From Lingula anatina (Eukaryota; Animalia; Brachiopoda), in the NCBI GenBank assembly GCA_051362555.1, contig CM120640.1:51748788-51812787 (forward strand): a DNA stretch of 64,000 nucleotides, read 5' to 3'. A model generated the notes under the pieces. That model did not search any database. It saw nothing but the letters and a program-made list of their open reading frames with translations, and was not told where the DNA came from. Of the stretch, positions 16,779 through 62,011 are shown one piece after another. How positions within the stretch are numbered: position 1 is the stretch's first letter; every line of letters begins with the position of its first letter. Position numbers and translations under genes: made by a program.

Positions 16779-18239
16779 TTAGTTCAATGACCCTGGGTTT
16801 CCCAAAGATCTGAACCTCTCTGCCATAACATGAGAAAATGAGTCCTTAACACTGTTAACTAGACTGTGAACATGATGAATTAACACCAGGTCTCTGGCGT
16901 ACCTTTCACTTTTATTCGGATAACTCTTCCAACCGGAAGGGGTTTCTGTTTGGTAAAATTTTACTAGACCATCTTCTGTTTCATTTATGAATTCGTTTAT
17001 TTCACAGACTATGTCGTACATGAGATTCTCGAGATTTTCTAACAGATGAGTATCCGTGATATCTGCAGTTTGTTTGTGTGTCAAATATTCGGCATGTTCG
17101 TGTTCCCGTATGATCTCCAAGTGCATCGTCTCTTTTCGGAGAGATTCCGACACATTTCTCAAAAAGGTTATGCAAGAACCCTGAAAATAGAATATAGTAT
17201 TACATTATCAAAAATGATTAGCCATGAAATTAATATGTACGACAATTAAATCCATTTTAAGCCTTAAAAATAAGGAAAAAAGAAATGTAACTATAATTAT
17301 CCTATAAAGTTTAAACAAGCAGTTTTGGCTGGCGTTGTTCTACACCAAAGTCAACACATCAGTCCTTTTTCAATTTTCATCATGTTATTTGGTTTCAACT
17401 TACATTGCAAATGCCCGATTCATTGACCACTGGTCGTCCGTTCTCGTAATAGATCAGACTCGGCAGCGACGTCGGTGATTTAACGGATTTCAGTACGAAG
17501 TTGAAAATTTCAACATTGTCGTGGTATCTATTATTCAACTGGAAACGCATAACATCACAAACGTAAATAAGTCATTCAAAACATTGAATTTAAAAGCCTA
17601 GTTCATACAATTGAAACTCTTTGAATGCGGGCATTATTTAAGCTATATGTAATTAACACCGTGATGACCCAAGCCTTGGATACAAAAAGAACCGCTTTGC
17701 CATGTTCAAATGCAGGTAACTGATAGCGATATTTACCAAAATGATAATTCTGTCGTCGGCAACTATAAAATAGATGAACACTATTTTCTATCCTACAGAT
17801 GCCTTTCTCAAAGGTACTGCATTTGTTGCTAATTGAAAGAGACCTTCCTCGATCAACGAGCCAATATTGTTAAACCAAAAGACCAGTTAAACCTTTTAAT
17901 AAAACAATTTTGTAAGGGAAAGAAAATTCCTTCAATTTTTTTGCCTTTAAATACATTTAAAACGATTGATTATAATCTGTGCAGTGCCCTTACCCATCTT
18001 TTCTTGATGCTGTGCGCCTGATTAGATATCTGGATAGTGTGGTCCAAAAATACATTAAGCGCTTCCTCTAGGTTAGCCAATGTTTCGTTCGATATTGTGA
18101 CAGCTTTCGGCACGTTATCTGCCTTTTTTCCACCTCGGGCACACGGCATGTTCCATCGAAGATCACTGGACGGCAACGGGGATGTTGTAGATAACTGTAT
18201 CACAGTCACAAATACACTCACCAGTATCAAGGTCAGCAT
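16779..18239 (-). CDS. Secreted four-helix cytokine-like protein, paralog A (Unpaired/IL-6-like candidate), 260 aa, 3 coding exons plus a non-coding exon 1
   Basis: Coding exons 18239-17994 (MLTLILVSVFVTVIQLSTTSPLPSSDLRWNMPCARG...AHSIKKRW), 17538-17404 (LNNRYHDNVEIFNFVLKSVKSPTSLPSLIYYENGRPVVNESGICN) and 17180-16779 (GSCITFLRNVSESLRKETMHLEIIREHE...LMYDIVCEINEF...ERYARDLVLIHHVHSLVNSVKDSF...SLN*). All introns are GT..AG and phase 0, and the frame is open throughout. Non-coding exon 1 ends at 18434 (GTAAG donor), with the acceptor before 18244. Hydrophobic signal peptide. The family call is inference. Confidence 0.8.
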
Positions 18240-18535
18240 CTTTCCTACACATAAAGAGAATCATAAAGTGTTATTCACCACGAAGCCAATTTCTTTTCAG
18301 ATCGAAATAACAATACGAGTGTCTAAATCTCGATTAAGGTTTATATATCTTTTTTCCGCACAACATACAAAAGAAAAGTTACATACCACAGTATAATAAA
18401 TGATTATCGTAAATATGGGCACTTTGATCTTACCGTTCAAAGGTTAAAATTACAAAAGAAATCCCCCTTATTAAGTTTAGAACAGCTTCTTTTCAGACTA
18501 TAACTTTTGAATTGTTAGAAGTTGTCTGATCTTTT

Positions 18536-25338: not shown

Positions 25339-25564
25339 ACGCACGCCATAAAGTAGTACTTCATACATTAACCTAACTTTAGTTCGGTACACTTTTAAAG
25401 CATTGTTCTCAAAATAATTAATTATATGTGATTTCAAGTAATTAAATTCTTTGCCATCTTAAATATATTGGATAAAGTTATTTCGACTAACAAAACGATA
25501 AAATCAATGGTTCTAAAAATACGCTTGCATTATACACTTTGCAAGACAAGACAAACTCCAGGTC
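25339..25564. promoter_or_regulatory. Bidirectional promoter shared by TM2D2 and STX18
   Basis: Divergent start codons only ~230 bp apart (25332/25338 minus; 25565 plus), so both 5'UTRs and the promoter must fit here. Confidence 0.7.
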
Positions 25565-36208
<10,644 letters not shown>

Positions 36209-44483: not shown

Positions 44484-45097
44484 TCCTTCTTTTTTTTATG
44501 TCATTTCAGTAATAACGAGTATCTTCCAGCGTGACAGTGCCATTAATAATACCAGTAAATATAGCCTGCGCATCTACAATACAAAGGGGAGAGGGGAAGA
44601 GCCCTGCTGGAACATTGTTACCCAAATAATCGACGTCATGAAGTAAAGAGTGGTCATTTAGCGGAACCCGGAAAATCCTCTCTTTTGATAATCCGATAGT
44701 TAATCCGCCGTTGATTTCCACAGGTGAGACAAAATTCCAATCACTAATCAGTATCTGGTCTCGAACATTTTTCGATCTCTTAAATTTGAATACTAAACAT
44801 TCCTAAATATTTGTCACCTGGTTTCGTGTGGTATATTGAAGTACTGAAACCAAACTATAAATTGAATAAAACCACATAAAACTGAAAACATGCATCCCTT
44901 GTTCGGAATTTGCCAACGAAGCCGGAAGTAAAATCATGCATTCCCCTGCGGACCTGCACACATTTTACGCTGTACATATAAACACGATGAACCGTAACAG
45001 TACCCCTGGTCTTACCGATTTCATCTCCATGTCCCATAGAACACAAAGCATGTAGCAGATCTGGAGATAAGATAAATGGTATTCCCTTCAACGGCAT
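37365..45097 (-). CDS. FUOM: Fucose mutarotase (RbsD/FucU family), 150 aa, 7 exons
   Basis: Exons 45097-45016, 43263-43211, 42816-42801 (16-nt microexon), 38879-38809, 37987-37886, 37791-37718, 37419-37365 (453 nt, in frame). Translation MPLKGIPFILSPDLLHALCSMGHGDEIVLADAHFPGSSICRNGPKELRADGHGIPELLAAILKVFPLDSYV...[36 protein letters not shown] has the MGHGDEIVLAD and YGNIILKKG hallmarks. Confidence 0.96.
38052..38224. mobile_element. PIF/Harbinger-type MITE in FUOM intron 4
   Basis: TIRs GGCCTCATTCAGAAT..GGGACTAACTAGT.CGAGGGTCAAATATG mirrored at the right end; TAA TSD on both sides. Confidence 0.8.
41930..42262. mobile_element. Diverged, internally deleted copy of the Kolobok-like element in FUOM intron 3
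   Basis: AATCTCTTAAGAGATT...CCATTGG.AAGTA.GGGAAAATTG..GTTTAC...GAAAAATCCA.TTTT matches 24685-24850 and ends in TTTAA. Confidence 0.6.
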
Positions 45098-46152
45098 TTT
45101 AATTCCCTCGGTGTTAGTGTCCTTTGAAAAGTAGGTCATAAAGTTGACTCGTTTTCGACTTGAACGTTGTTAAGTCGAGTAAGGAGGACCCAAACAGGGA
45201 AGTCCCTCAAACCAAGGAGTTATAACTCCTTGCTTAAACTTATGCTCGAATTAAGATAATGAGGAAATTTGATCTTTTACTCAAACTGCTGCTGTTATGT
45301 CGCTCGCTGTCACAATTCCTGATCTTATAATAAATAAATGTCGCATTTCTACCCCCTCCTTTTTATTTTGGGGAGGGGGGGAGAGGAAAATGAATAGGCC
45401 TACACATTTTTAGTTGGAGGGTGTGTGTGTGTGTGTGTGTGAAGCCAGTGCTCCCCCATGTGTTTGCAGTGAACTGTTCAGTTATGAACATAATGTGCAC
45501 TTCACTGTGAACCTTTCTATAAATAACCAAAGCTGCATACTCCTCTTTTTAAAGATCAATAGGCCTACCAATGGTGAAAGTGTTTTACTGTCTACATGTA
45601 ATAGGCCTACCCGAAGTTTAACTCGCAAGATTCCAGGTTAGTACGACTAGTACGCTTATCCTTGTAGATTGCGACGTTTAGGGCCTATGGGGAAAATGTG
45701 GCAACTCAATTTAGTTAACAATTTGCCGATAAATATCACAGTAAGTCAAGCAGTCTGCGCAAAAGAAAATATATTATCTTAAATATGATTATTAATTTTC
45801 TGCAACCGCTGGCATAAGATGGTGGTAATTCTGTGTTGCGGTCTCACTGCGGTACCTGTAAAAACTTTCCGACTATCGTTGATTTCTTCACAAAATGAAG
45901 ATATATGGACTTTAAACCAATAATTCATCGTCCGCAGAGCTGTATACATTATGACTTGGTCGTAACCAAACAGTTTCCGATTGCGACATGTGCGTTGGCC
46001 ACCCAGAGAAAAGAAAAGAAAAAGAAAAAAAAAGAGGTAATGGGCATGTCCCGCTAGTACGTAATACGTGATCCCCGCGGTTCCTGTTTCTGTACCGTTG
46101 TAAAGTAAAGTGGGGTATTCAAAGCCGATGAGGGTAACTTCCAAGTACGCGA

Positions 46153-46490
46153 TGAGTCAACCTACATGTAAGTGACATAGCTTATCTAGACATTATCTTT
46201 CGGATCATCCGAAACGGCGCTACTATTTTGTCGAAGTAAGATTAATCTTTTCTAATGTACAATAATTTGTGATTACACAGGGTTTATTGCATAATTGTTG
46301 AAATATTCGACAACGTGCGAATCCGATACGGTGGGGGTTCCCCGATTTTAAATGCGGCACTCATAACAAAGGGCACTTCCGTAGGTGCACGTCACGTCAG
46401 ACATCACATCCTATTCCGACCCACATCAAGAAAATCCATTAGGACATTGGGCATTTCTATATTTAACCCATGAATTCAACACGTATAAAA
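46153..46490 (+). promoter_or_regulatory. Inducible-type promoter of paralog B: AP-1, C/EBP, NF-kB, CRE half-sites, TATA
   Basis: TGAGTCA 46153-46159; ATTGCATAAT 46286-46295; GGGGGTTCCCC 46333-46343; GGGCACTTCC 46371-46380; CACGTCACGTCA 46388-46399; TATAAAA 46484-46490, about 125 nt upstream of the ATG at 46611. Confidence 0.6.
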
Positions 46491-46610: not shown

Positions 46611-47996
46611 ATGGCAATGGGAATTATCCAAAGTATGTAGAAGTATGATAAATAGTACATAATATTTTATTGTGGGTTATTTAACGTTGTGGCATATTTT
46701 TTATCTTGTTTTGCAAAGTTTAACTGAAATTTAAAGCGTTCAAAAACAACTGTTGGAGTTTTATTGAGAATGTTTAATCTTAACTGAATGTTTTTATCGT
46801 TTTAGATTCATGTCTGCTACTCTTGTGCTTGGCTAGTTGCACTGTCGCAGTGCCTCTGAGGAAATCCCGCGATACCTCTTCTTCGACGGCGGCACCAACT
46901 TCGCCCCTTCTTAGATGGCACCAACCGTGTGGGGGTAGTAGTCCTGTGAGCAACGGCCCAGCCCTACCCGCGATGCCTGCTCCTCCTCTGGGTCAGTCTG
47001 CTTTCACCATACGTATGCACATCACTGACAATATGAACAAAGTGAAGGATCTTCGTAAACGATGGGTAAGGGTTTTTCATCATCTTCTTCTAAATGAAGA
47101 AAAAAATGTAAAAACTAAAACATGATGATGATTCATATACTGAAACCTAAACTTTTTAAAGTATAGAAATTTAGTTTCTTATACTAACATCAAGTAATGC
47201 AGCTTTTTATTGAGATCGAAACTTATATGAAATTTCTGTTATTTCAGGTACAAGAAAGATTTCACAGCGATCCTGAATATATCAACTGGATTGAATCTCA
47301 GTACATAGTGTACAGTAGTTTGCCACAAGAGGAGCACTGGTCTCAGTTTGTTGGGATTCAAAATGCTGTAAATAACGTAAGTCCTCCAATTTCGACATGT
47401 GATTCTAGTAATTTTTTAAAAGTTATATTACATAAACTAGTCTATATGTTTTAATGATTGTCGCTTTTGGAAAAAATGTTCTTCTATGGAAAAGATAGTT
47501 GAATGTTTATCTTGCTCATTTCAAGGAATCGTGACGTTTGTTATTGCACCATTGTTTACATAGTTCCTGCAAAACGCTTGCATCGCCATCTGCAGTAAGA
47601 AATAATAACTAACGTTTTCTACTTCTATTTCAGATGGACGAGTTCTTTTCACAGAGTTATATTTGGCTAGCCAAAATAGCAGTGCACTTAGAAGAAATAA
47701 GGATAGATGAGCTCGCGTCCAATACAGTTTTTAACCAAGAAAACGTCGATGCTCATATGATCCAGAGTGCTGAGGATCAGCTGTACGTCTGCATGTGCGC
47801 CGTTCATACCCTCATGACGTCCAGGAACCTGCAGCTGGACCAGACGATCGAGCGAGACATACTGGAGACTACTTTCGCTGACCCGCCAGGCAATTCAAAG
47901 ACCCTGAGGTACAACAGAGACTGGATCGTTTTCAACCATTTCCTGAAACTCCTAACTCATTTGGAAAAGGTTTACACCGAACTCCAACAAATGTAA
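46611..47996 (+). CDS. Secreted four-helix cytokine-like protein, paralog B (Unpaired/IL-6-like candidate), 257 aa, 4 exons
   Basis: Exons 46611-46632 (22 nt, phase 1), 46806-47065, 47248-47376, 47634-47996, all GT-AG. MAMGIIQNSCLLLLCLASCTVA signal, then ...LLRWHQPCGG...VKDLRKRW | VQERFHSDPEYINWI...AVNN | MDEFFSQSYIWLAKIAVHLEEIRIDE...QLYVCMCAVHTLM...LRYNRDWIVFNHFLKLLTHLEKVYTELQQM*. Clearly paralogous to A (KRW| junction, HLExIR, RYxRD). Confidence 0.85.
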
Positions 47997-48632
47997 GAAG
48001 TTGAACTCTTTAAATTTTGATAATCTCCGTGGTAATACGGACAAAACAGTTTACTTGATTTGGGTCCGTTCTGTTATCTGTGCCTAGGGGTGTGCAGCTG
48101 CATGAAGGACTACGGCATCTATTATGATCTCTTACAATACAGTTTATCCATTATGGCATTCCAGCTTTAAGTGTGCGTTTACAAATTCATTTGTATATTT
48201 ACCATTAAAAGTTGAGGGACGAAATTAGTAAACAAAGAGTAAACTCAGTGCTTTAGAATTTTCGCTTATGTGAAAATGATAATAGTAGCGGCTATGCCGT
48301 GTTTTATGTAAGTGGGTTTTATCCACTGTCGATTATTTGTGTTTGGATTGGATAACTTTGTGCTATGTGTATTCGTATTTATATATATTCATTATTTATC
48401 ATATAGGGAATTTAAAATACCAATTCCTATAGTTAATAATTATGCTTGTACATAGGCTTTTATTTATTGAACTTCAATGTTCTTGTGAGCTTTATACCAA
48501 TTTTCCAGTCGATTCAATGTTAGCAGTGATATATTTATAATCTTCATCTTCCATTTTGGAATTAGGTATTTATTGAGCTGCCTGTGATATTTTTGTGAAC
48601 TTACAATTTTTACCATATGTTGAAACAATAAA
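47997..48632 (+). promoter_or_regulatory. AU-rich 3'UTR and polyadenylation signal of paralog B
   Basis: About 7 ATTTA pentamers including the nonamer TTATTTATT at 48460-48468; AATAAA at 48627-48632. Confidence 0.5.
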
Positions 48633-53200: not shown

Positions 53201-54930
53201 TAATGTATTATATAGCAGTACAAACCTTATTACCCGAAATAGCTACTGATAAAAGAAAAATAATGCTAAAATGTAAACTCTTTGAGTTAAATTGGCTTGA
53301 GGAAAAACAACCCTGTGTATTATTTTTCGTCTTAATTGTCTTTCCTTTCGGTTGTAACGCAGCGTCATCGTTATTTTTACTCCCGCATAATCATTCAATA
53401 ATTCGTTAACCTGCACCCTTTATCGAGGGGCAAAACAATAGAATTCTACTTATTTTTGGGGGACATGGCATACGTAAATCCTGTGGTAAAAACGAACAGG
53501 ACAAACCTGACCAAAACACGATAACACTGTAGACTACTTCCCTGCAGTGTCATAACTGTCATTTCAAACCGCAGTCAACAATAATAAAATTGATGAAAAG
53601 GCACTTCATCACCTATCAAATCTATCATGTCTCATCTCGTCATACATTAAGTGACTGGGAAAACGCAATTTCCTCAGATTTCCTAGGAATCGCATGCCAT
53701 ACAAGCCTGCAATGATAGTCATTCTATGCTGATTAGCTTACGTCAGTACACTTAACTATATTTATATATATATTACCGAGAGAGCATATGGAAGCTTGTA
53801 CTGGGTCCTTTACAGAAACAAGCGCAAAATTGTCAAAATCACAATGATTATCTACTCGCACTTCAGTGTTTTTTTATGTTGACGCCGCACTTGCCAATTG
53901 TGTCAGTTGAGACAAACGCACTTGCTTGACTACAAAATGTGCTGACATGCGAAAGAAGCTAAAATCAGAGCCACAGTAAATTAACGCACATACACTTTTC
54001 TTTTTGTTGGACACATTTTGATTAATAACCAACTAAATCCCTTGTAGATTTCTATCGGCATTTATCTCCTTCTTGGGGATAATTACTTAGGGCAAATTTC
54101 ATGCACTTCGTTTATCTATCATTGACAGGGCTTTTTCTAACTCGAGCCTCAGATTTGTGAGCACAAATGCCCAAATTAATGACTCCAGCCACGAAATACA
54201 CTATCCTAACATAAAATAACTTGCCACAAGCACAGCGTTTCATTACACAAACCGTTTATCCGCTTATCTAACCGTTTGATACGTTCCATAACTTCCATAT
54301 GAGCCGGAGACACATTGACCTTTTTAGTACACCAGGTATCGCTTTTAGTGACAATTTTTCCCGCTTGGTGAGCCACTTGACGGGGCAGCAGGCCCTAGAC
54401 TGCGCGTGATGGAGGGATCGGATTTTTGTTGTGTGCCTGGGCAGGGGTGGATCCAGGATTATTTGAAGGGGGGGGGGGGGGGGGGGCGCAGATTGATAAA
54501 GTTGAATTTGTCGTTCCTCTTGCCGCAGTCCAAAGCGTTTGTATTAAAAAATCAATAACAGTGTCCTCTGCCACTGGTTGTAATGAAACCTTTTTATGAC
54601 GCGCAAAACGCAATCCGAAATTCGATGGTTCGTGTCAGATTTACGTTAAGTCGCTCAAAGAAAGCTCAAGTACACATAATGACCAGTTAAGCGGTTGACG
54701 CTCGCAAACTGCATGATCTACGTGAAGTCTTCATCTTCGGAACCCTCTCCCATGACTCGCGACCGTCTCCTTAGTATATTAATTACATGTAAGGCCAAGT
54801 GTAGCTTTTTAGTGACAACTTTTCCCGCTTGAGGCGCCACTTGACGGGACAGCAGGCAAGCTAGTCAACGTTTAGAGATGTAAAGTGAAGAAAACAAACA
54901 CTATCTAATGAAGAAAAAAAAAAAAAAACG

Positions 54931-55152
54931 GTGAAAGAACTTAAAACAATTTTGAAAAAATATGGCAAAAATGTAAGTGGAAGGGGGGGGGGAGAACAGT
55001 TGATTGCAAGAATGAATACCATTCGCGACCAAGAACTGTATATTTCACATGATTGCTTTACCGATGAAAAATTGAGAGACTTACAGTGGAGCGCTGATTT
55101 GGGAGATGGTCCACCGTGTCCAGTTCACAATAATACCCCCGAGACATGTTAA
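54931..55152 (+). pseudogene. Degenerate SAP-domain ORF remnant, probably transposon-derived
   Basis: VKELKTILKKYGKNVSG....QLIARM fits the SAP consensus (V.EL+..L+..GL..SG.K..LI.RL). No ATG start or splice support, and the ORF is short. Confidence 0.4.
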
Positions 55153-58287: not shown

Positions 58288-58386
58288 TTCGCCGAAATAG
58301 CGGGAATGTCCCAGAAAAAGTTGATGATCTAGATGATACAGTTGGCAACTTTTACCCTCAAGACATCACCAAGGTTTGCTATATAA
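58288..58386 (+). promoter_or_regulatory. Promoter of paralog C: STAT site, NF-kB site, TATA
   Basis: TTCGCCGAA 58288-58296; GGGAATGTCCC 58302-58312 (reverse GGGACATTCC fits GGGRNWYYCC); TATATAA 58380-58386, about 95 nt upstream of the ATG at 58479. Confidence 0.55.
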
Positions 58387-58478: not shown

Positions 58479-60617
58479 ATGTGTAGACAAGGTGAGTGCG
58501 CATTTTTTTATAATTTTTGTTTCGAGCAAAAATAATCGGCCATATCTGCCAGAGAGCCGTATGGACTACTATATTCCCTTAATGCAAGTTATAAAGCACG
58601 TTCTACCATTCAATTTTATTAAATAAAGTGCATAGTATGGTTTACCATTTTATTGATTTATTTTATACACAGTTGGGTGCACCGGCATCCATATAGCCCA
58701 TTTCAACCATCATTTTGGACTTATAAAACCATTTTTTTATATATTTTATAGCAGTTTTATGTTTTAATTCAATGATTATCAATTACTTATCTTTTGCTAT
58801 TGACAAGGAAATTCAGACTTTACCATCGGTTCGAAAAGGTCTTTTTTACTTGATAGCTACTCCACCCCACAATTACTTTCAATTTATTATCATTATTTAC
58901 TCTTTAAGGGCGTTTCAATATTCATGGATAGTTGAAGTACTCTTTGGGACACACTCTTATAATCATTTTACATAGTAAGCGTAACAAATGTGACAACTTT
59001 TCTGTGACTGCCTTTAACACAACACTGTAACGCACCAGTTGTCTCATAATGACTTTTGCACCTGCTAAGGATCGAAATGTCTGCTTTTAAATATTTAAAA
59101 ATAAACATGAGAAAAAAAAAAAACAAAGAATTACATCAGTTGAGATCCTGGACTATTTTGAGAAAATTTGCATACCACGTTCATTTTGTTTCATTTTTGG
59201 CTCATTATATATTCCGAGCACATTCCCCGTCCTACCGGGCAAATAAATTGCGCTTTGTTCAGCACCTTCGAGACCGATTCGAGAGCAGTTTTATTAATCA
59301 GCACCGTTTATAATAAAAAAAAAATTACAGGTTTAATCACATCAGAAAATAATCATGCCATTCACAATCTTGCGTTGATACCAGTGGACTGGTGTGGTTT
59401 TACTCTTAGTTGGTTTAAGTAGCATTTTTGTCACTCCCCCTTTTCTTTCACATTCCCATTTCATTTTTCTACCTCACTTTAAAAAGGTATGCACTCTTTG
59501 CACTTTGATATTTTGGTCCACTTCTCCTTCTTTATTGACACCGTGAGGCGCTGCTACATATGTTTATACATCACTGGCTTTTTTGAATTTGGCGTATACA
59601 TAATTCATTATAATCATTATCATATTTTAACACACACATGGTAAGTTACCATGTCGCCAAACAGCGTAAGATCACAGAATGCAGCAATAAGGTACGTCTG
59701 TGTACTTGCGGTTTTTAAGTATAACGCGGAGGGCATTCTAAGTTTATTTCTCCGCATAGTTTAAGTGTAATTTACCGTCCACTATTGTGTCAATGATATC
59801 TACGCTTTACAGGTGGCTGCACGTTCCTTGGCGTATTCATACTTATGCTTTACTTCCTCGTCTGCCGAGGAAGGGAACACTCTCCAAAGCCAGTGTGTGC
59901 CACTCTTGCCTGCTCCATTACTCGTGTGATAGAAGTTGACTTCTCCAACCCTTGTGGCCGTGAGTATAACAACAGACTTAATTTTTATATGTATGTATTA
60001 TTAAATCTTTGCATGCATTGTGAAGGACGGACTTGAGGTAAACTGTGTCGTGAACGTGTAAATAGAGATTTGAGTTGTCGCTCTGTGCATTTTCTCAATG
60101 TTATGAAAAATGTTTAGGGTCACCGTAATGTTTTTGAAATTGGCAATCTCTCTGCGAATTATCTTAACTCGAATTTAATATCTTAACACCTTGACATGAC
60201 CAGTAATCCCCGTTTTATGGCCTATAGCCTTTCCTAAAAGCTTATCATAGGGGTAATAAGGATGCGAAAAACACTGAGAAACAAACATGATTTTACTTTA
60301 TAACGGACCCTGGCAGTAATTGAAACCACATTGTGTAGGTATGGTAAACGGCATTTTTTCAAAATAAATACCAACTTGCATTGAAATCATTGTTATATTT
60401 AGTTAGCAATTCATATAGATTATAGTGTGACAAGTACAAGCTGTAAAATGTTATGTTAGCAACTCCTGAGTAGATTAAGATCTTTGTTGGATTTTGTCCT
60501 TTTTGCCCCCCCCCCCCCAGACGCACTATCTAAGCATACGATGTTTGGGGGGGGGGGGGGGGGGGTCGGCTTCGCATCCGTGCCCTCCCTTCAAATGACC
60601 CTGGATCCACCCCTGTG

Positions 60618-60664
<47 letters not shown>

Positions 60665-62011
60665 CGAGAGCGAGCCAACGTAAACACACACGATATTAAA
60701 CACATTTTATCGTTAGACGCATTTCTGATTACATTTGATATGCAAAGATCTATTTTTTTCAGTTTCACCGTGCAAAAGCAACAGATCTACTCCAAAACCG
60801 AAATACCTTGAGAACTTTATTATCGACTTGGGAAAAGCGCGTACCCGGGCAGAGAAACTGTACGGTTTTTATGTAAGAGGAATTTGTATTTTTAAATATT
60901 TTAAACAGAAAAAAAAACGAATGCAGAGTTATAGAATTTTTGTTTTAAAAATGTATTTCGAAAATTTCGATAAAGAGATGTTGCATAATATTATATATTA
61001 TTTCACGAAGTGATACGATTTTATATGCTATGATATCATTTTTAAAATTGTAGCGTGGAAATCTGGGTAACATTATAGCTGACCGTCGACTCACTCGGAA
61101 TCCCAAAAACGATGTTAGATTGAACTGTGAATCATGGACCCGGGAAACGTTCGGTACTATCAATGGCGCTGACGTCCATCTGAACGGGGAAACGGTACGC
61201 TTCTTTTGTTTGGAAAAATAAAGAAAGGGGAGGATCATTTAAGTAAGAATTATAAAAATGAAAATACACTGTGGACAAACGTTGCTTTATGGAAAAAATA
61301 GGCGACACACATTTGTCCACTATTAATGTACTTAATCATCTGACAGACTGTTGGTGTGAATATACTGCAAATCACTACTCCGAATAACTCCATGTTATTA
61401 TAGGTCATAGATCATTTGAATCAAAACAAATAAAAAAAGGAAAACCTGCTGTAACAGCAGTTATCTATATTCTGAAACCTGGCACCGACATTTTTGCTTT
61501 TCTTTGAAAGAAATATAAACCAATGTTAATGGCATAGTTAGCACACTTAATATTCATATGTATCAACCACTTTGCCCCTTTACCCGTTACATTGTCACTA
61601 ACTTACTTCTTTTTACGATTTCAGCTGAAAATCATCCATCATGCTCTGTTGAATTTCACATATCACGTAAGTGACGTTTACAGGAATGCAATTCAAAATA
61701 AGTACTGCCAACCTGGAGACAATGAAGCGCGTGATATACAGGAATTTCAGGAAAATAATATGCTTCCAATCTTGTGTACTATCGACGTAATGAAACGTCA
61801 TCTTCAGATATGCCTTGATTCCGAGATACACGCTCAGGTCAAATCAGCACAGTGGGACAGATGTACAGAGACCAAACACCAAAGGAATGTCTACGGTTTG
61901 GAAGTATTTTATCACGGAAAGTGTCTTCTGTCGTTCCTTTGGGAATCGTTCAACGCTGCCATTTCGAAGCGACCTGACGGAAATACTTATTTTCTGGACT
62001 TTGGCAACTGA
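58479..62011 (+). CDS. Secreted cysteine-rich four-helix cytokine-like protein, paralog C (Unpaired/IL-6-like candidate), 265 aa, 5 exons
   Basis: Exons 58479-58491 (13 nt, phase 1), 59813-59959 (phase 1), 60763-60872 (phase 0), 61054-61194 (phase 0), 61625-62011, all GT-AG and in frame. MCRQGGCTFLGVFILMLYFLVCRG signal; DFSNPCG motif; helix A ..IIDLGKARTRAEKLYGFY|; helix C NMLPILCTIDVMK; helix D QRNVYGLEVFYHGKCLLSFLWESF. AATAAA at 62429-62434. Confidence 0.75.

Follow-up and report, generated by a model that had tools for sequence, protein, structure and literature searches.

Does a brachiopod possess secreted ligands of the class I helical cytokine type, and can the structure of their genes reveal it? 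The question arises from three short genes, here designated A, B and C, in a 64-kb stretch of Lingula anatina DNA (the window; 64,000 nt of GenBank assembly GCA_051362555.1, contig CM120640.1, positions 51,748,788 to 51,812,787 of the forward strand). An initial annotation, made from the sequence alone, had read the intron phases of these genes as the pattern of the vertebrate IL6, CSF3, GH and PRL genes, and the three genes as paralogs. We rebuilt the three gene models from the window and analyzed their sequence relatives, the predicted fold of B and the positions of their introns. With a probability of roughly 0.8, we read A, B and C as a brachiopod trio of protostome Unpaired-like cytokines that likely act on a Domeless/gp130-type receptor and are probably homologs of the vertebrate IL-6/IL-11/G-CSF/prolactin group. 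A sequence bridge leads to insect Unpaired, and a gene-structure bridge, independent of sequence identity, leads to IL11 and IL6.

Gene models and encoded proteins

All introns of A, B and C are of the GT-AG type. In the rebuilt model, gene B (forward strand) consists of four coding exons with intron phases 1,0,0 and an open frame of 257 residues, and its product is identical, letter for letter, to the L. anatina protein XP_013392858.1 (LOC106160736). Gene A (reverse strand) has three coding exons with phases 0,0 and encodes 260 residues, again identical letter for letter to an L. anatina protein (LOC106160740). Both entries are annotated as 'uncharacterized'. Gene C (forward strand; five exons, 58479-62011; phases 1,1,0,0; 265 residues) is represented by our model alone; neither a database record nor reads were found for it. 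For all three rebuilt genes, the initial annotation had described the exons and phases correctly.

B and C begin with a short phase-1 coding exon within the signal peptide (22 nt in B, from reads; 13 nt in C, from the model). In A, an intron in the 5' untranslated region (UTR; 18434-18244) ends 5 nt upstream of the ATG and is in phase 1 with respect to the open reading frame (ORF). The database record of A (P0003) opens with residues that are given only by the spliced join of exons 1 and 2. This intron may correspond to the first intron of B and C, A having lost the upstream start codon. By hydropathy, the most hydrophobic 11-mers of A, B and C fall within residues 1-23, and the proteins (257-265 residues) have the signal peptide and the length of 150-280 residues expected of long-chain class I cytokines.

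Sequence kinship with Unpaired-like proteins

A profile of A and B was searched against 1.84 billion representatives. Fifteen proteins were found at E<=0.001, comprising B itself, proteins of a whitefly (Bemisia, 1.7e-9), a ladybird beetle (Henosepilachna, 1.8e-7), a mussel (Mytilus, 8.7e-7) and an ark shell (Tegillarca, 1.2e-4), and ten unnamed proteins. The Henosepilachna protein (P0006) scored 29.1 bits on the Pfam family Unpaired (PF15972; cut-off 27), and through it the Lingula proteins are linked by sequence to the insect Unpaired family (Drosophila Upd1-3), the ligands of Domeless. Alignment of A and B with three insect-type proteins gave an HHalign probability of 98% (E 1.8e-13). The relatives have in common a W-x-x-P-C-G motif, an invariant cysteine in helix C and an R-D motif in helix D; B carries all of these. 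The likeness to the insect profile matches thus includes the signal peptide, W-x-x-P-C-G, the helix-C cysteine and the helix-D R-D. In contrast to members of the Unpaired family, A, B and C have no direct PF15972 match, and their identity to the insect matches is ~21-22%; no Drosophila protein is among the A+B profile matches. From these sequence comparisons, A, B and C would be signal-peptide-bearing relatives of insect Unpaired-family proteins. The initial annotation had overlooked this closest kinship in sequence, which is with Unpaired-like proteins of protostomes and not with vertebrate genes. From their conservation, the cysteine of P-C-G and the invariant one in helix C are predicted to form a disulfide.

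Word-based homolog searches returned only the Lingula proteins themselves, and Pfam searches with single exons of B and A gave nothing relevant. Two scans of JGI metagenomes for genomic loci of the relatives yielded 66 and 595 pattern matches, with no confirmed relative among them. In Mytilus edulis, a 401-residue model (P0027/P0026) contains two family units end to end. It is likely that two tandem paralogs were fused by annotation here, and bivalves seem to carry tandem copies too.

Predicted fold of B

The AlphaFold2 model of B (predicted local distance difference test, pLDDT, 78.9) contains four long helices, A (residues 69-99), B (138-167), C (175-200) and D (226-256). Compared with 48,161 chains, the model matched best to IL-11 (Z 16.8; root-mean-square deviation, rmsd, 2.5; 162 residues aligned), CLCF1 (Z 16.7), IL-6 (15.8) and CNTF (15.8). 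The top 24 rows were all helical cytokines, and the first unrelated row had a Z of 8.7. A second structural comparison gave CNTF (18.8), IL-11 (17.9), G-CSF (16.1) and prolactin (15.8). The four-helix topology extends over 154-173 residues aligned to IL-11, CNTF, CLCF1 and IL-6. B is predicted to adopt the long-chain class I four-helix cytokine fold. In the ESM Atlas, the clusters nearest to B and A (scores 0.92-0.95) are from arthropods, chordates and molluscs and carry Hormone_1, IL6 or LIF_OSM on a minority of their members. The claim that A, B and C are class I helical-cytokine-like was thus upheld, by the profile of relatives and the fold model of B.

With the vertebrate gp130-family cytokines (IL-11, CNTF, CLCF1, IL-6, OSM, LIF and IL-27p28) and G-CSF, B shares the predicted fold (Z 15-19, rmsd 2.3-2.9), the tiny phase-1 first exon and phase-0 introns in register with the positions that we assume for IL11 and IL6. 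It differs from them in its low identity (9-15%), a longer N-terminal linker with P-C-G and the lack of a third domain intron. The growth hormone/prolactin family (PF00103) shares the fold class, with a Z of 15.8 for prolactin and 12.8 for growth hormone. The presumed intron 2 of PRL is likewise in register with B, and the Atlas neighbors carry Hormone_1 on 12-32% of their members. Class II helical cytokines (IFN-lambda and type I interferons, IFN) had lower structural Z values of 9-11.7; IFNL2/3 have a tiny phase-1 first exon like B, but four phase-0 introns. IL-6 orthologs are described as having four conserved cysteines and synteny with TOMM7 (PMC13081863). B has three mature cysteines (49, 190 and 192), arranged otherwise than in the four-cysteine IL-6 pattern, and no TOMM7 was seen nearby among 57 of 199 ORFs scanned. 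B cannot be assigned to one vertebrate ortholog.

Intron positions compared with vertebrate cytokine genes

The initial annotation had taken the phase string by itself as a sign of cytokine identity. With human intron phase frequencies, the string 1,0,0 has a probability of 0.05-0.075, barely beyond chance, and phase-1 introns near signal peptides are generic (PMC5308243). The human class II cytokine genes IFNL2/3 also start with a tiny phase-1 exon and have phase-0 introns thereafter (PMC2654155). In lamprey, a screen for the phase string 0-0-0-0 returned 132 genes, 14 of them with a signal peptide and fewer than 300 residues (bioRxiv 10.64898/2026.05.30.728932). The phase string was therefore rejected as stand-alone evidence; its combination with predicted structure is established practice for finding distant cytokines.

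Among the vertebrate genes, IL6 has five exons and three domain introns (PMC13081863), IL11 has five exons (PMC12956725) and a first intron 7 bp from the start codon in fish and mammals, i.e. in phase 1 (PMC3271213), and the GH/PRL family has five to six exons (PMC9546618). Of the IL6/CSF3/GH/PRL layout claimed for the Lingula genes, the short phase-1 exon and two phase-0 domain introns, at places matching IL6, held up. The third phase-0 domain intron of the five-exon layout, located between helices B/C and D, is absent in A, B and C, which have no intron between helices B and D.

More informative was the position of the introns on the structural alignment. In the B model, intron 2 interrupts the final turns of helix A, directly after W94, and intron 3 follows N137, the residue preceding helix B. 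The helix-A register was taken from the first aligned pair, assuming no gap up to residue 94. W94 corresponds to IL-11 residue 60 in 6 of 7 rows (61 in the row of a mutein), in precursor numbering based on what we take to be the signal length, and to IL-6 precursor residue 71 in 9 of 10 rows. For prolactin, it corresponds to mature residue 40 in the five rows starting at the helix, and for human G-CSF to mature residue 35 in two rows and 36 in two rows numbered one higher. We take intron 2 to lie after residue 60 in IL-11, 70 in IL-6, 40 in prolactin, 35 in G-CSF and 31 in growth hormone. For the register of intron 3, exon 4 of B was folded alone, and the assumed vertebrate positions were written down beforehand. 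Its first residue corresponds to IL-11 residue 90 and to IL-6 precursor residue 108 (7 of 8 IL-6 rows, in equivalent numbering); intron 3 presumably lies after residue 89 in IL11 and after 108 in IL6. Since ferritins score as high with this three-helix piece, the exon-4 search serves as a register check and is no proof of fold. Foldseek was uninformative for the exon-4 model (best E 1.1). Given these assumed positions, both introns of B match IL11 to the codon and IL6 within one codon. The projection proposed by the initial annotation thus places the two phase-0 introns at equivalent helix boundaries, one where helix A ends and one where helix B starts.

A and B could be Unpaired-like helical cytokines, together with C, and the intron match nevertheless be a coincidence or a parallel gain at favored helix-end sites. 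The comparison is limited to two domain introns, phase 0 is more frequent than the other phases, phase-1 signal-peptide introns are generic, and both sites deviate by one codon in IL-6. Intron turnover is evident, as C has an extra intron and all three genes are without the third. The vertebrate positions in the comparison are all assumed; four of nine prolactin rows, starting in the loop, differ from residue 40; growth hormone (1a22) is represented by one loop-starting row that gives 33, off by two; and the rows listed for the exon-4 model cover IL-11 and IL-6, not G-CSF, prolactin or growth hormone. On the other hand, both introns match the assumed IL-11 positions to the codon, and a rough estimate puts the probability that both would fall within one codon by chance at ~7e-4, a value that assumes uniform positions and is uncorrected for helix-end preference or choice of family. 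We consider coincidence or parallel gain quite unlikely.

Among the relatives, three of the four ORF calls extending upstream of helix B have a glutamine exactly at the position of B intron 3, as a CAG acceptor would give; one of the three groups with insect proteins in the tree (95/98). Two more ORF calls start with methionine at the start of B exon 4, and two that start further downstream are uninformative. This pattern, which is read from protein sequences and which P0014 does not fit, would be consistent with a conserved phase-0 acceptor at B intron 3 shared by the relatives.

Under the homology that we favor, the phase-0 introns of A, B and C would share their ancestry with introns 2 and 3 of IL11, IL6, CSF3 and PRL, from which we infer a single bilaterian cytokine gene as the origin of the family. 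The third domain intron would have been lost in the lineage of Lingula or gained in another.

Relationship of A, B and C

Judged from sequence and intron positions, A, B and C are paralogs, as the initial annotation had stated, although similar loop-exon lengths (135, 129 and 141 nt), which it had offered as confirmation, were rejected as proof; the informative measure is the alignment position. The local score of A and B has a z of 22.7, with 0 of 500 shuffles as high. C was tied to the family through a profile of 14 non-Lingula relatives. It scored 14.3 bits there, whereas none of 1000 shuffles exceeded 7.2, and the alignment covers its full length and keeps both P-C-G and the helix-C cysteine. 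In all four alignments, the helix-A intron (intron 2) of the three genes shares a column, whereas intron 3 is shifted relative to B, by 1-2 residues towards the N terminus in A and by 4 towards the C terminus in C.

Gene C might instead be mis-modelled or no paralog at all, as a pseudogene or an unrelated secreted protein. It has no pairwise similarity to B (z = -0.2; 301 of 500 shuffles as high) and weak similarity to A (6 of 500), is outside the 15 A+B profile matches and has neither reads nor a record. C is very divergent, with an HHalign probability of 43%, and lacks the helix-D R-D motif. Against a misfit, its five GT-AG exons give an open frame of 265 residues, its score on the relatives' profile is about twice the shuffle maximum, and its helix-A intron shares the column of A and B. 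We regard this alternative as very unlikely and retain C as a divergent paralog. In the tree, A and C have long branches (4.5 and 8.2 changes per column), and a single clade of A, B and C is not resolved (83/88). A has 4 cysteines, B 6 and C 13. The extra phase-1 intron of C (59959-60763) lies directly after the P-C-G motif. No fourth paralog was found in a profile scan of all window ORFs of at least 25 residues.

Transcript support for B

RNA read evidence, obtained for B alone among the three genes, came from 4 of 9 listed runs, using about 6-30% of each. Intron 1 is spanned by seven reads from two runs, in which 46632 is followed, after two letters, by 46808. We read this as use of the acceptor at 46806 together with a one-base allele difference. 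Intron 1 has a single frame-preserving GT/AG pair within 30 nt, compared with four for intron 2 and nine for intron 3 (12 of these 13 in phase 0). At introns 2 and 3 the depth was below 2, and no joints were listed among the runs used. Inside both of these introns there were bins with a read depth of 0, although one run left a trace in intron 3. In run X1, a single read pair extends into intron 1. Thus, of the junctions that the initial annotation had proposed to map, the first junction of B was confirmed, and introns 2 and 3 were too thinly covered for joints.

At the first ATG of B (46611-46613), all 9 covering reads of runs X7 and X9 show ATA, whereas both reads of X1 retain ATG. With the ATA allele, the first coding exon would measure 16 nt from the second ATG, two codons on, and remain in phase 1. 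X7 and X9 differ from the window at more than 20 places, suggesting a divergent population or a sister form as their source.

Proposed role and origin

The 3' UTR of B contains 7 ATTTA motifs (vs 2.2 +/- 1.9). A strict NF-kB consensus occurs at 4 loci in the 64 kb, two of which lie within 200 bp upstream of B and C (C site 58303-58312). The set of consensus sites upstream of B (NF-kB, AP-1, half-sites of the cAMP response element, CRE, and a C/EBP-like site) resembles what we take to be the IL6 promoter. B and C may respond to NF-kB, as their consensus sites suggest. STAT and C/EBP consensus sites were discarded as evidence for being too common (18 and 32 of 106 tiles).

We propose that A, B and C are likely secreted, short-lived, inducible ligands of a Domeless/gp130-type receptor, signaling via JAK-STAT. 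The proposal draws on the signal peptide, the fold, the Unpaired kinship, the NF-kB consensus at B and C and the ATTTA-rich 3' UTR of B. STAT is reported to be present in Lingula (PMC13203501), and Domeless resembles gp130 and binds Upd (PMC7378365, PMC12284397).

Besides the points raised above on intron register and on C, several observations weigh against our reading. The Unpaired Pfam match is found in 1 of the 15 profile-hit proteins and in 0 of 11 further cluster members, and A, B and the exons of C have no Pfam match of their own to Unpaired, IL6 or Hormone_1. No solved cytokine was matched in sequence searches of the PDB with the A+B and the 16-sequence profiles. Foldseek ranks the same proteins first for B, with weak E-values (best 0.065), and the ESM Atlas's own model of A had no structural cytokine match. 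Introns 2 and 3 of B and all C junctions are without read-level joints.

The proteins could also have the class I fold and not signal through Domeless and JAK-STAT, acting on another receptor (e.g. of the CRLF3 type) or in a non-signaling secreted role, most plausibly in the case of A and C. The very long branches of A and C and the missing helix-D motif of C would fit such a divergence, and shrimp Domeless is reported to be activated by a lectin (PMC5645147). B retains all family motifs, and the NF-kB consensus near B and C and the ATTTA motifs of B are as in inducible cytokine genes. Loss of Domeless-type signaling appears unlikely.

Proteins of this kind are already known, as Upd in insects and as IL-6-type cytokines in vertebrates. 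A 2026 survey that covered brachiopods recorded no ligand of the IL-6 family among its invertebrates (PMC13203501). No description of Upd-like ligands in brachiopods or molluscs was found among the titles and abstract openings of the literature searched, most subscription journals being outside its scope. Beyond the Unpaired-like trio, we lean towards a further-reaching interpretation, in which A, B and C would be direct protostome homologs of the IL-11/IL-6/G-CSF/prolactin group, codon-exact introns would unite Unpaired and vertebrate class I cytokines from a bilaterian ancestor, the three proteins would be the JAK-STAT ligands that the survey did not find outside insects and vertebrates, and B would be an NF-kB-driven inflammatory cytokine. 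If this is true, the immune-signal family dates to the common ancestor of insects, shellfish and vertebrates. In any case, the three genes are named candidates for the missing ligands in a lophotrochozoan, and they make class I cytokine ancestry testable.

Feature coordinates and genomic surroundings

Table 1. Features of genes A, B and C in window coordinates. Helices are those predicted for B, or assigned by alignment.
Feature	Position	Strand	Remarks
B coding exon 1	46611..46632	+	22 nt; 16 nt from second ATG; signal-peptide start, phase-1 donor
B exon 2	46806..47065	+	remaining signal peptide, low-confidence linker, W-x-x-P-C-G motif, helix A to W94; phase-0 donor
B exon 3	47248..47376	+	129 nt; last turn of helix A and A-B loop; phase-0 donor after N137
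B exon 4	47634..47996	+	helices B, C and D, uninterrupted, and stop
B 3' UTR	47997..48632	+	7 ATTTA motifs; AATAAA at 48627; reads to ~48650
B promoter	46153..46489	+	AP-1 46153-46159; NF-kB 46333-46343; TATA 46484-46489; consensus matches only
B promoter, C/EBP-like site and two CRE half-sites		+	half-sites near 46395-46405; consensus matches only
A non-coding exon 1	18434..18515	-	5' end approximate
A exon 2	17994..18244	-	coding part 18239-17994; signal peptide to end of helix A (W82); phase 0
A loop exon	17404..17538	-	135 nt; phase 0
A last coding exon	16779..17180	-	helices B-D by alignment
C coding exon 1	58479..58491	+	13 nt; phase 1; model
C exon 2	59813..59959	+	signal peptide to P-C-G motif, then extra phase-1 intron; model
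C exon 3	60763..60872	+	helix A to Y90; phase 0; model
C loop exon	61054..61194	+	141 nt; phase 0; model
C last coding exon	61625..62011	+	helices B-D by alignment

Three further coding fragments were noted, each scoring below its Pfam cut-off. An exon of the FucU/RbsD family (fucose mutarotase-like; 44858-45169, reverse strand; 23 bits, cut-off 25) is oriented head-to-head with B, ~1.4 kb away, and a further NF-kB consensus lies at ~45197. Between A and B, a syntaxin-18 N-terminal exon (25517-25771, forward strand) scored 29.9 bits, just below the cut-off of 30.6; in human, STX18 presumably lies near the cytokine-like gene CYTL1. A SAP-domain fragment between B and C (54889-55152, forward strand; 19.7 bits) is probably a mobile-element remnant.
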